A stretch of 64,000 nucleotides of DNA from Escherichia coli (GTDB lineage Bacteria; Pseudomonadota; Gammaproteobacteria; Enterobacterales; Enterobacteriaceae), in the NCBI RefSeq assembly GCF_003991155.1, contig NZ_CP031293.1; one strand, 5' to 3'. This document shows, in pieces, positions 28,594 through 32,302 of the stretch. The position numbers and the translations under genes were made by a program. Positions within the stretch are counted from its first letter, which is position 1; the number at the start of each line of letters is the position of its first letter. The notes below the pieces were generated by a model. That model made no database searches and was not told where the DNA came from. It saw only the letters and a list, made by a program, of their open reading frames with translations.

Positions 28594-29109
28594 TTAGAAG
28601 CGGTAACCAACACCGGCAATCCAGGTGCCTACGTCAACGCTACGAATACGGCTCTGCTCGTAAGAGAAGTCCAGAGCAACGTTTTCCATCGGGTTGAACT
28701 GCAGACCAGCACCGTAGGAGAAACCGTAGTCGCTGGTGTCGTGTTTGTAGGTCGGGTATTCAGTGGTCTGGAATTTACCATAACCCACACCCACTACACC
28801 GTAGATGCTTGCCCAGTCGTTAATGCGGTAAGCCGGACCAGCAGTGATGCCGTAGTACTGGTTTTTGTTGTAGTCACCAGAGCTTGCAGTACGGCTTTTC
28901 TCGGTGTAAGTGAAAGAACCGATCACACCCAGCGGGCTGTTGTCTTCTTCATAGCGGTATTTCAGGTTGAAACCGCCCATTTTGTTCATTTGGCCCTGAG
29001 CGTCGCTCTGTGCGTAACCGCCAGTTACAGTAGAAGTCGCAGCTACGGAAGTACCTGCGGTGAAAGCCAGAACTGCGGCCAGTGCTGAAAGACATGCAAT
29101 TTTTTTCAT
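28594..29109 (-). CDS. ompX: Outer membrane protein OmpX (8-strand beta-barrel), start at MKKIACLS
   Basis: Recognised OmpX sequence ending ...GVGYRF. Confidence 0.92.
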   Translation of the reverse strand: MKKIACLSALAAVLAFTAGTSVAATSTVTGGYAQSDAQGQMNKMGGFNLKYRYEEDNSPLGVIGSFTYTEKSRTASSGDYNKNQYYGITAGPAYRINDWASIYGVVGVGYGKFQTTEYPTYKHDTSDYGFSYGAGLQFNPMENVALDFSYEQSRIRSVDVGTWIAGVGYRF

Positions 29110-29461
29110 AACCACCTCAAATGTGATTCAAATAAGTCCTAAGTTTTAAATATATCAAAAATTAATGGGAAACTCTTCGCGATTTATGATGTCTAACGGG
29201 CCATTTCATGTAACAGAACGTTTCCATACACCGCTATCCATCTAAATTTAAATCACTTTTTCAGAGAACTGCGTAAGTATTACGCATGTTTTCCCTGTCA
29301 TTCATCCAGATTATTCCTAATCACCAGACTAATGATTCCATCAATCCTGGCGCATTTTAGTCAAAACGGGGGAAAATTTTTTCAACAAATGCTCAACCAG
29401 CATTGGGTATATCCAGTACACTCCACGCTTTACTTAGGTTTAGATATTTGTGGGAGAAAGG

Positions 29462-30349
29462 ATGCCTGGTTCATTACGTAAAATGCCGGTCTGGTTACCA
29501 ATAGTCATATTGCTCGTTGCCATGGCGTCTATTCAGAGTGGAGCCTCGTTAGCTAAGTCACTTTTTCCTCTGGTGGGCGCACCGGGGGTCACTGCGCTGC
29601 GTCTGGCATTAGGCACGCTGATCCTCATCGCGTTCTTTAAGCCATGGCGACTGCGCTTTGCCAAAGAGCAGCGGTTACCGCTGTTGTTTTACGGCGTTTC
29701 GCTGGGGGGGATGAATTATCTTTTTTATCTTTCTATTCAGACGGTACCGCTGGGTATTGCGGTGGCGCTGGAGTTCACCGGACCACTGGCGGTGGCGCTG
29801 TTCTCTTCTCGTCGCCCGGTAGATTTCGTCTGGGTTGTTCTGGCGGTTCTTGGTCTGTGGTTCCTGCTACCGCTGGGGCAAGACGTTTCCCATGTCGATT
29901 TAACCGGCTGTGCGCTGGCTCTGGGGGCCGGGGCTTGTTGGGCTATTTACATTTTAAGTGGGCAACGCGCAGGAGCGGAACATGGCCCTGCGACGGTGGC
30001 AATTGGTTCGTTGATTGCAGCGTTAATTTTCGTGCCAATTGGAGCGCTTCAGGCTGGTGAAGCACTCTGGCACTGGTCGGTTATTCCATTGGGTCTGGCG
30101 GTCGCTATTCTCTCGACCGCTCTGCCTTATTCGCTGGAAATGATTGCCCTCACCCGTTTGCCAACACGCACATTTGGTACGCTAATGAGCATGGAACCTG
30201 CGCTGGCTGCCGTTTCCGGGATGATTTTCCTCGGAGAAACACTGACACCCATACAGCTGCTGGCGCTCGGCGCTATCATCGCCGCTTCAATGGGTTCTAC
30301 GCTGACAGTACGCAAAGAGAGCAAAATAAAAGAATTAGACATAAATTAA
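29462..30349 (+). CDS. rhtA: Threonine/homoserine exporter RhtA (DMT superfamily), start at MPGSLRK
   Basis: 295-aa polytopic membrane protein; synteny with ompX and dps. Confidence 0.88.
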   Translation: MPGSLRKMPVWLPIVILLVAMASIQSGASLAKSLFPLVGAPGVTALRLALGTLILIAFFKPWRLRFAKEQRLPLLFYGVSLGGMNYLFYLSIQTVPLGIAVALEFTGPLAVALFSSRRPVDFVWVVLAVLGLWFLLPLGQDVSHVDLTGCALALGAGACWAIYILSGQRAGAEHGPATVAIGSLIAALIFVPIGALQAGEALWHWSVIPLGLAVAILSTALPYSLEMIALTRLPTRTFGTLMSMEPALAAVSGMIFLGETLTPIQLLALGAIIAASMGSTLTVRKESKIKELDIN

Positions 30350-30359
30350 ATTTACATTA

Positions 30360-30385
30360 CTGCATGGTTATGCATAACCATGCAG
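30360..30385. terminator. 26-bp perfect palindrome ctgcatggttatgcataaccatgcag followed by atttt; likely rhtA terminator
   Basis: Read directly, 11 bp after the rhtA stop; the arms are exact reverse complements. Confidence 0.5.
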
Positions 30386-30474
30386 ATTTTCTCGCTACTT
30401 TTCCTCTACACCGTCTTTATATATCGAATTATGCAAAAGCATATTTATTCCGAAAATTCCTGGCGAGCAAATAA

Positions 30475-31152
<678 letters not shown>

Positions 31153-31190
31153 ATCCATCGCTGATGGTGCAGAACTTTAGTACACGATAA

Positions 31191-31225
31191 AAGCGGCTTC
31201 CTGACAGGAGGCCGTTTTGTTTTGT
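31191..31225 (+). terminator. dps rho-independent terminator candidate
   Basis: Imperfect hairpin cggcttcctg-ac-aggaggccg followed by ttttgtttt. Confidence 0.6.
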
Positions 31226-31383
31226 AGCCCGCCTCAACGCACTTATTTAGTGCATCCATCTGCTATCACCAGCTGGTTAAGTAAATTTTTTGTATCCACA
31301 TCATCACACAATCGTTACATAAAGATTGTTTTTTCATCAGGTTTTACGCTAAATAATCACTGTGTTGAGTGCACAATTTTAGC

Positions 31384-31412
31384 GCACCAGTTTGGTGCCC
31401 CAGAATGGTGCA
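31384..31412. promoter_or_regulatory. Tandem NtrC (NRI) enhancer-like sites upstream of glnH
   Basis: GCACCAgtttGGTGC and overlapping TGCCCCagaaTGGTGCA resemble the NtrC consensus TGCACCA-N3-TGGTGCA. Confidence 0.5.
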
Positions 31413-31485
31413 TCTTCAGGGTATTGCCCTATAAATCGTGCATCACGTTTTTGCCGCATCTCGAAAAATCAATGAGTTGCAAAAC

Positions 31486-31502
31486 TGGCACGATTTTTTC
31501 AT
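31486..31502 (+). promoter_or_regulatory. Sigma-54 promoter candidate (glnHp2): TGGCAC-N5-TTTCA
   Basis: -24 TGGCAC element with a -12-like element 5 bp downstream, about 55 bp upstream of the glnH ATG. Confidence 0.5.
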
Positions 31503-31540
31503 ATATGTGAATGTCACGCAGGGGATCGTCCCGTGGATAG

Positions 31541-32302
<762 letters not shown>

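Follow-up and report, generated by a model that had tools for sequence, protein, structure and literature searches.

The 26-bp palindrome that follows the threonine/homoserine exporter gene rhtA in Escherichia coli is very probably the DNA image of a stem-loop in the 3' untranslated region (UTR) that ends the rhtA mRNA upstream of dps. Substitutions among orthologous loci follow a pattern that indicates selection, across the Enterobacteriaceae, on an RNA hairpin of the rhtA-sense strand, and published RNA 3' end data place the primary rhtA terminus of E. coli K-12 just beyond this hairpin. The element is of an ordinary, known kind, already tabulated as the K-12 rhtA 3' terminus (PMC10687069) and already noted as an inverted repeat (PMC5553809). 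As a single-gene 3'-end hairpin of familiar type it changes little for biology at large, and the modest residue of interest lies in its conserved U-tract-less form and its unusual flanks. Because rhtA is engineered for threonine production, the position of its transcript end and the extent of read-through into dps are also of practical use.

A perfect palindrome between rhtA and dps

Positions 30360–30385 of the window, by which we mean the whole 64-kb stretch of E. coli DNA that was analysed, read CTGCATGGTTATGCATAACCATGCAG. This sequence is identical to its own reverse complement, making it an exact 26-bp palindrome with 13-nt arms (30360–30372 and 30373–30385) that are 100% complementary and separated by a spacer of 0 nt, just as an earlier note on this DNA had described it. 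The palindrome starts 10 nt past the rhtA stop codon (TAA, 30347–30349) on the + strand, and ATTTTCTCGC lies directly 3' of it. It is the sole perfect palindrome with arms of at least 8 nt in the 64 kb, the runners-up having 7-nt arms, and of 200 first-order Markov simulations of the window, most had a longest arm of 7–9 nt and one reached 13 nt. The palindrome is real and not a product of chance. The genes that flank it were correctly named in the earlier note: RefSeq annotation of identical and near-identical E. coli loci gives rhtA and dps on the same strand, within the order ompX (-), rhtA (+), dps (+), and glnH (+). The best match to the window is strain 2016C-3878, which is 100% identical, while K-12 is ~97% identical over the rhtA–dps spacer. 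A sigma-70 promoter scan of 29000–31600 returned 0 sites, leaving a promoter at the palindrome unsupported.

Folded as RNA, the window sequence forms an 11-bp stem closed by a 4-nt loop (Table 1), with a predicted free energy of -15.1 to -16.2 kcal/mol and a z-score of -4.4 to -4.7, and none of 200 shuffled sequences folded as well. A terminator-pattern scan flags the hairpin on the rhtA strand, and its dimensions fall within those of intrinsic-terminator stem-loops, which have a stem of about 5–14 bp and a loop of 3–8 nt on the coding strand. The palindrome is spacerless in the DNA because the four bases of the loop, UGCA, happen to be self-complementary. This spacerless perfection is an accident of Escherichia.

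Table 1. Features of the rhtA–dps locus, in window coordinates.
Feature	Position	Strand	Basis and remarks
rhtA CDS (threonine/homoserine exporter)	29462..30349	+	ORF list; RefSeq annotation of matching E. coli loci; translation retrieved 80 orthologous loci
Hairpin 5' arm, CUGCAUGGUUA	30360..30370	+	11 pairs, 5 of them G-C; covaries with the 3' arm in 65 orthologues
Loop of 4 nt, UGCA, self-complementary	30371..30374	+	RNA fold
Hairpin 3' arm, UAACCAUGCAG	30375..30385	+	RNA fold and covariation
Tail, AUUUUCUCG	30386..30394	+	30394 is the counterpart of the mapped K-12 rhtA 3' terminus; K-12 has AAUUUCUCG here
C-rich, G-poor stretch, candidate rut-like Rho-loading region	30386..30425	+	12 C and 2 G in 40 nt; composition only
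dps CDS, downstream gene, parted from rhtA by the hairpin	30649..31152	+	ORF list and annotation
dps intrinsic terminator, GC-rich stem followed by UUUUGUUUUG	31190..31218	+	Terminator-pattern scan and fold; canonical control

Palindromic, extragenic sequences can belong to dispersed repeat families, and an IS1 element lies in the same spacer in two strains. Nevertheless, it is hardly credible that this palindrome is a REP- or BIME-like repeat or the remnant of a mobile-element end. REP and BIME elements are multi-copy, but each E. coli genome has one such locus, besides the trivial self-match of the palindrome on the opposite strand, and, with up to 3 mismatches allowed, the window holds no further match to the 26-mer (0 expected). 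The element occupies the same place relative to rhtA in genera across the family, an Rfam scan of 29000–31600 at E values up to 10 gave no match overlapping 30360–30385, and the IS1 insertions, which are located downstream of the hairpin, are specific to individual strains.

Compensatory change in the stem across Enterobacteriaceae

With the RhtA protein we collected 80 rhtA loci, one per species, from Escherichia, Citrobacter, Salmonella, Enterobacter, Kosakonia, Buttiauxella, Atlantibacter, Leclercia, Lelliottia, Cedecea, Pantoea, and other genera. In 78 of the 80, dps comes after rhtA on the same strand, with a median spacer of ~300 bp. A perfect stem of at least 8 bp (ΔG below -10 kcal/mol) that starts no more than 20 nt past the stop codon was found in 70 of the set formed by the 80 loci and the window, and the first 60 nt past the rhtA stop codon fold at -10 kcal/mol or better in 79 of 80. 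Four loci that fail the strict search (L042, L054, L066, and L080) show the hairpin by eye, with a longer loop or one mismatch. The 5' arms vary by genus, examples being TTCTGCATGG, TTCAGCATGAGA, TTTACCGTGGTT, TTCCGCATC, and TTTCGCACG, and each has a 3' arm to match it. Outside Escherichia the loops are 3–10 nt long and mostly not self-complementary, and the spacing of the arms varies; the loop is TGCAT in Citrobacter and ATGCATA or GTGCATA in Salmonella, and the loops of other genera are unrelated. Within the species, the earlier note had suggested conservation across E. coli genomes as a check, and the 26-bp core proved to be the same in all nine E. coli sequences that were aligned.

As a separate observation, the strongest hairpin downstream of rhtA in two species of Mangrovibacter (L074:2436-2465 and L077:2422-2455) lies 28–42 nt past the stop codon instead of in the usual place close to it; this hairpin has a high GC content, with UUUCUU or UUUACC after it. 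These hairpins are consistent with the position after rhtA being a terminator slot.

Covariation was assessed in a plain, structure-blind MAFFT alignment of 65 distinct sequences. The loci had been pre-selected for having a hairpin, which inflates the percentage of paired cells but cannot create double-sided changes at aligned columns. RNAalifold recovered the same 11 pairs as the fold of the window, with compensatory changes at every pair. When a 17-pair helix was specified, 84.5% of the cells held standard pairs, compared with 31–47% when the 3' partners were slid by 1–3 columns. Changes on both sides of a pair were found in 174 cells, against 29–53 in the slid controls, with 15 of the 17 pairs showing them. 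The covariation score was 0.465, whereas the slid controls reached at most 0.127 and none of 500 shuffles matched it.

The kind of mismatch that is tolerated distinguishes selection on RNA from selection on DNA. A transition in a stem leaves either a G.T or an A.C combination on a given strand; the corresponding G.U is tolerated in RNA and A.C is not, while in duplex or cruciform DNA both are mismatched. The stem cells contain 54 G.U combinations, spread over many columns and many genera, versus 17 A.C combinations, 8 of which fall at the outermost column and most of the others in three visibly misaligned sequences (L049, L053, and L058). The excess of G.U over A.C, together with the covariation, therefore points to selection on the rhtA-sense transcript and not on a DNA cruciform or operator. 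Compensatory changes with G.U tolerated on the transcribed strand are what a conserved structured RNA is expected to show; the conserved half-sites, fixed spacing, and strand-symmetric tolerance expected of an operator or cruciform were not seen in the alignment.

These comparative results bear on a different view of the same DNA. Melekhov et al. (2015) observed DNase I protection by Dps at ~113 and ~175 bp from primer dps_F1, which lies inside rhtA, so that the protected regions bracket the repeat, and their primer dps_F2 overlaps the 3' arm of the palindrome (PMC4433220). Antipov et al. (2017) noted a 30-bp inverted repeat in the distal Dps contact site and speculated about promoter topology (PMC5553809). 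The repeat in those papers is the same DNA, 30 bp long in K-12 and within 216–281 bp upstream of Pdps, but there it is treated as a structural target for Dps, whereas the comparative evidence presented here points to an RNA hairpin in the rhtA-sense transcript (PMC5553809, PMC4433220). A cruciform-prone inverted repeat that is bound by Dps or another architectural protein and tunes the dps promoter ~240 bp downstream would account for the in vitro footprint (PMC4433220, PMC5553809), and the perfect, spacerless palindrome of Escherichia favours extrusion. We nonetheless consider this improbable. The stem covaries, the asymmetry between G.U and A.C would be meaningless for duplex or cruciform DNA, and the loops outside Escherichia, with their variable length and mostly non-self-complementary sequence, are ill suited to extrusion or to a fixed operator. 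In addition, Dps bound more poorly to the distal fragment, on which the palindrome lies, than to the proximal promoter fragment, and the footprint, obtained in vitro only, required a 5- to 10-fold excess of protein (PMC4433220). The comparative data should temper readings of the repeat as a cruciform or as a site of Dps autoregulation, with the repeat being kept by selection on the rhtA RNA.

Perfect dyad symmetry also suggests a sequence-specific operator for a dimeric transcription factor of rhtA or dps, and the flanking TT...AAT is nearly invariant, at 90% or more of the 65 sequences. However, the cores of the half-sites differ between genera (TTCTGCATGG, TTCAGCATGA, TTTACCGTGG, and TTCCGCATC), the spacing between the conserved flanks varies, and the site, which comes after the rhtA stop codon and precedes the dps start site by ~240 bp, does not coincide with the described sites of dps regulators (PMC5553809). 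We regard an operator as very unlikely, and a search for the palindrome sequence in paper texts found no match. The suggestions in the earlier note of a protein-binding site or a cruciform-prone sequence are thus disfavoured by the covariation of the stem, by the tolerance of G.U but not A.C, and by the confinement of spacerless symmetry to Escherichia; what speaks for them is a weak in vitro footprint of Dps on either side of the repeat (PMC4433220, PMC5553809).

Only in its flanks does the hairpin leave scope for a less ordinary reading. The pattern (TA)TT-stem-AAT(A) is near-invariant across genera (alignment columns 9–12 and 40–44; window 30356–30359 and 30386–30390), although the stem core between these flanks covaries freely. 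At the foot of the helix two base pairs are nearly invariant U-A, in 60 of 65 and 59 of 65 sequences, and the next T is nearly invariant too. The polarity of these flanks, with UAUU before the stem and AAUA after it, is opposite to that of the A-tract and U-tract of a terminator and reads the same on both strands. There is a slim chance that the invariant flanks mark a distinct 3'-end element recognised by a factor, such as a class of terminator that lacks a U-tract or the site of an RNA chaperone or nuclease, or else a Dps-autoregulatory DNA cruciform of the kind on which Antipov et al. speculated.

The rhtA 3' end and the stop of transcription

The earlier note had proposed mapping of the rhtA 3' end as a further check on its terminator reading, and published K-12 data provide it. 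The TRS study (Nat Commun 2023, Supplementary Data 3 and 4) lists a 'Primary' rhtA 3' terminus at NC_000913.3 position 849165 on the minus strand, with a peak at 849163–849170 that is dominated by 849165 and a 3' UTR of 46 nt (PMC10687069). Adjusted p values for this terminus in three LB RNAtag-seq libraries were 0, 0.185, and 0.0028, so that it is not significant in one of them, and the fold given in the study for the rhtA end has the same 13-bp stem, at -18.7 kcal/mol (PMC10687069). The terminus is the G of GCAGAAUUUCUCG, 7 nt beyond the 13-bp stem. It corresponds to window position 30394, reached by counting off 45 nt past the stop codon, the allele measured being that of K-12 and not that of the window. 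A 3' end ~7–9 nt past the stem is expected of an intrinsic terminator, and the literature value for the K-12 allele falls in this range, although a 3' end 7 nt past the stem fits intrinsic termination and exonuclease trimming equally.

The rhtA 3' end was found in one dataset, that from K-12. The Term-seq tables of Adams et al. (2021) lack an entry for rhtA and give no 3' end from 848852(-) to 850273(+), and rhtA is not listed in the TERMITe tables. The gene is weakly expressed, with ~0.05 read starts per nt compared with 15–21 for ompX (PMC10687069). Its low expression, rather than read-through, probably explains its absence from both sets of tables.

The sequence that follows the stem is where the rhtA hairpin differs most from canonical intrinsic terminators, in which a U-rich tract of about 7–9 nt comes directly after the stem and U occupies the proximal positions. 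In the window the tail is AUUUUCUC, with 5 U in 8 nt but A as its first base, and in K-12 it is AAUUUCUC, or UUUCUCGC if two A-U pairs are counted in the stem. The U-tract is thus poor, short, and interrupted, and the base of the stem is rich in A-U pairs. An A-U-rich stem base weakens intrinsic termination. For a comparison across species, we counted U over the 4 nt that follow the outermost G:C pair and used the dps terminators of the same loci as the control. The dps terminators (77 loci) had a mean of 2.96 U in 4 nt, with UUUU in 44 of 77, whereas the rhtA hairpins (69 loci) had a mean of 1.07 U, typically in the sequence AAUA, with a single U in 53 of 69 (Mann-Whitney p ~3e-15, for loci that are not independent of each other). 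Two cruder measures made no such distinction: neither a TransTermHP-style tail score nor the number of U in the 8 nt past the full stem told the rhtA hairpin apart from genuine terminators, the latter measure giving p = 0.16 against the dps terminators. In most orthologues the stem-loop has no U-rich sequence after it, while E. coli has a run of 3–4 U. Since the orthologues are without a U-tract, the ancestral element was a stable hairpin that lacked one, with the short U-run acquired in E. coli. The main reading of the earlier note, a terminator hairpin for rhtA, therefore holds broadly, given the selection on the RNA hairpin across Enterobacteriaceae and the K-12 terminus past its stem; its place at the 3' end of rhtA stands, but it need not be a canonical intrinsic terminator, as orthologues lack a proximal U-tract, and Rho-dependent termination with a protective hairpin is a live alternative.

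In the mechanism that we propose, the transcript would fold past the rhtA stop codon into the 11-bp stem (13 bp in K-12) with its 4-nt loop. This hairpin would set the 3' end of the rhtA message ~7–9 nt downstream, at ~30394, and would shield that end from 3'-to-5' exonucleases. We infer that it would also keep rhtA transcription out of the separately regulated promoter region of dps. On account of its U-run, the window allele, with its stem followed by AUUUUCU, would best be read as a weak-to-moderate intrinsic, Rho-independent terminator, with Rho as a probable backup acting on the C-rich, G-poor untranslated RNA just downstream. In most other enterobacteria, where the hairpin has no U-tract, it would most likely be a purely protective structure at the end of a Rho-terminated transcript.

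A role for Rho draws on the composition of the RNA past the hairpin. Over 150 nt past it, the skew (C-G)/(C+G) is +0.27 to +0.40 in the 69 loci, and it is ~0 in most upstream coding bins. The stretch in which C exceeds G corresponds to window 30386–30535; across the 69 loci G makes up ~10–11% of its sense strand, and parity is regained near the dps core promoter. The RNA directly downstream of the hairpin is thus C-rich and G-poor as at a rut site, a likeness of composition only. Literature searches for bicyclomycin or Rho depletion at the rhtA site, for rhtA with terminator, and for rhtA with dps and terminator returned nothing relevant.

It is quite possible, though we do not hold it to be the probable case, that the element belongs to a Rho-dependent terminator with a protective stem-loop in E. 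coli too. RNA polymerase would then read through the hairpin, Rho would load on the C-rich, G-poor RNA beyond it and stop transcription diffusely, and PNPase and RNase II would trim the transcript back to the hairpin, leaving a sharp 3' end. This alternative differs from our preferred explanation in mechanism only and gives the element the same identity. It would explain why AAUAU, and not a run of U, follows the orthologous hairpins, and it accords with the skew in the 69 loci and with the 12 C against 2 G among the 40 nt that come after the stem in the window. It also fits the description by Dar and Sorek of stable stem-loops without a U-rich tail and with rut sites directly downstream (PMC6061677), and the K-12 3' end 7 nt beyond the stem is compatible with stalling of an exonuclease. 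However, E. coli differs from the other genera in that its stem leads directly into a U-run (UUUCU in the K-12 allele, UUUUCU in the window and 28-bp alleles), and the skew is a matter of composition only, within the upstream regulatory region of dps, where other constraints may have shaped it.

The rhtA hairpin, which we favour as a weak intrinsic terminator in the window allele, shares features with two known kinds of element, besides being the same DNA as the inverted repeat of the Dps literature. Like intrinsic terminators such as that of dps, it has a stable stem of 11–13 bp and a 4-nt loop, lies a few nt past the stop codon on the coding strand, and in E. coli has a short U-run and a 3' end mapped 7 nt past the stem. 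It differs from them in the short or interrupted U-tract (AUUUUCUC in the window and AAUUUCUC in K-12), in the A-U-rich base of the stem, and in the AAUAU of most orthologues, with 1.07 U compared with 2.96 in dps terminators. In contrast to bidirectional terminators, its flanks UAUU and AAUA reverse the A-tract/U-tract polarity. It resembles the protective 3' stem-loops of Rho-terminated transcripts (Dar and Sorek, 2018; PMC6061677) in that most orthologues have no U-rich tail, the 3' end lies just past the stem, and a C-rich, G-poor region follows directly, but the modest U-run of the E. coli alleles sets it apart from these, so that they may terminate intrinsically as well.

Alleles of the hairpin and other elements of the locus

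Three alleles of the hairpin occur in E. coli. In K-12 and O157 the palindrome is extended to 30 bp (TTCTGCATGGTTATGCATAACCATGCAGAA) by two T...A pairs outside the 26-bp core, and TTTCT follows. In a second common allele, found for example in Ecol_656 and in ST131, the palindrome measures 28 bp and TTTTCT comes after it. The window allele, with its 26-bp palindrome followed by A-TTTTCT, is rare: the exact window 65-mer was found in 41 of 5426 complete genomes, the exact K-12 65-mer, representing the 30-bp type, in 4071 of the 5426, and 65-mers with 1–3 mismatches to either, which are of the 28-bp type where sampled, in about 1200–1300 genomes. The stem shortens as the T-run lengthens (30 bp with AATTTCT, 28 bp with ATTTTCT, and 26 bp with ATTTTCT; flanks at 30359 and 30387), and the predicted stability of the hairpin falls from -18.7 kcal/mol in the 30-bp allele of K-12 to -17.8 in the 28-bp allele and -16.2 in the window. 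The longest U-run, in AUUUUCU, belongs to the window and 28-bp alleles, which have given up one or two outer base pairs for it. The rare allele of the window has the most terminator-like tail. The locus is a natural series for testing the effect of the proximal U-run, offering stems of 30, 28, and 26 bp with AAUUUCU or AUUUUCU, and AAUAU in other genera.

Several other elements were observed in the neighbourhood. The dps terminator, which has strong Term-seq 3' ends in K-12 at 848340 (PMC7815308), gave sub-threshold Rfam matches at 31190–31225 to ctRNA_p42d (24.5 bits; gathering score 50), STnc70, and isrD. These matches, which fall within 31135–31225, reflect a generic resemblance among terminator hairpins and are no evidence of a small RNA.

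The IS1 insertions in the rhtA–dps spacer are found in two unrelated E. coli strains, tcmA_3 and 2017-02-1CC. In tcmA_3 (L008:1548-2310; window ~30392) the sequence diverges 7 bp past the palindrome, practically where the rhtA 3' end has been mapped, and in 2017-02-1CC (L004:2738-3460; window ~30487) the insertion lies further downstream, in the distal dps regulatory region. Both insertions would be expected to cut dps off from its distal upstream DNA.

The centre of the palindrome recurs in imperfect form (TTATGCAAAAGCAT compared with TTATGCATAACCAT) 61 bp downstream, at window 30429–30442. This second copy forms a small hairpin of its own in the RNA fold and sits in the distal dps regulatory fragment, in which a weak promoter-like site, 'P3', has been reported (PMC4433220).

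On the other side of rhtA, the divergent ompX–rhtA spacer contains a hairpin, TGCGTAAGTATTACGCA, at window 29270–29286 on both strands, with the small gene yliM annotated close to it. In the tables of Adams et al., an 'orphan' 3' end located 157 nt upstream of ompX, at K-12 850293(+), has the sequence of this hairpin on the ompX-sense strand. The hairpin may be an attenuator or a processing site in the ompX 5' UTR.
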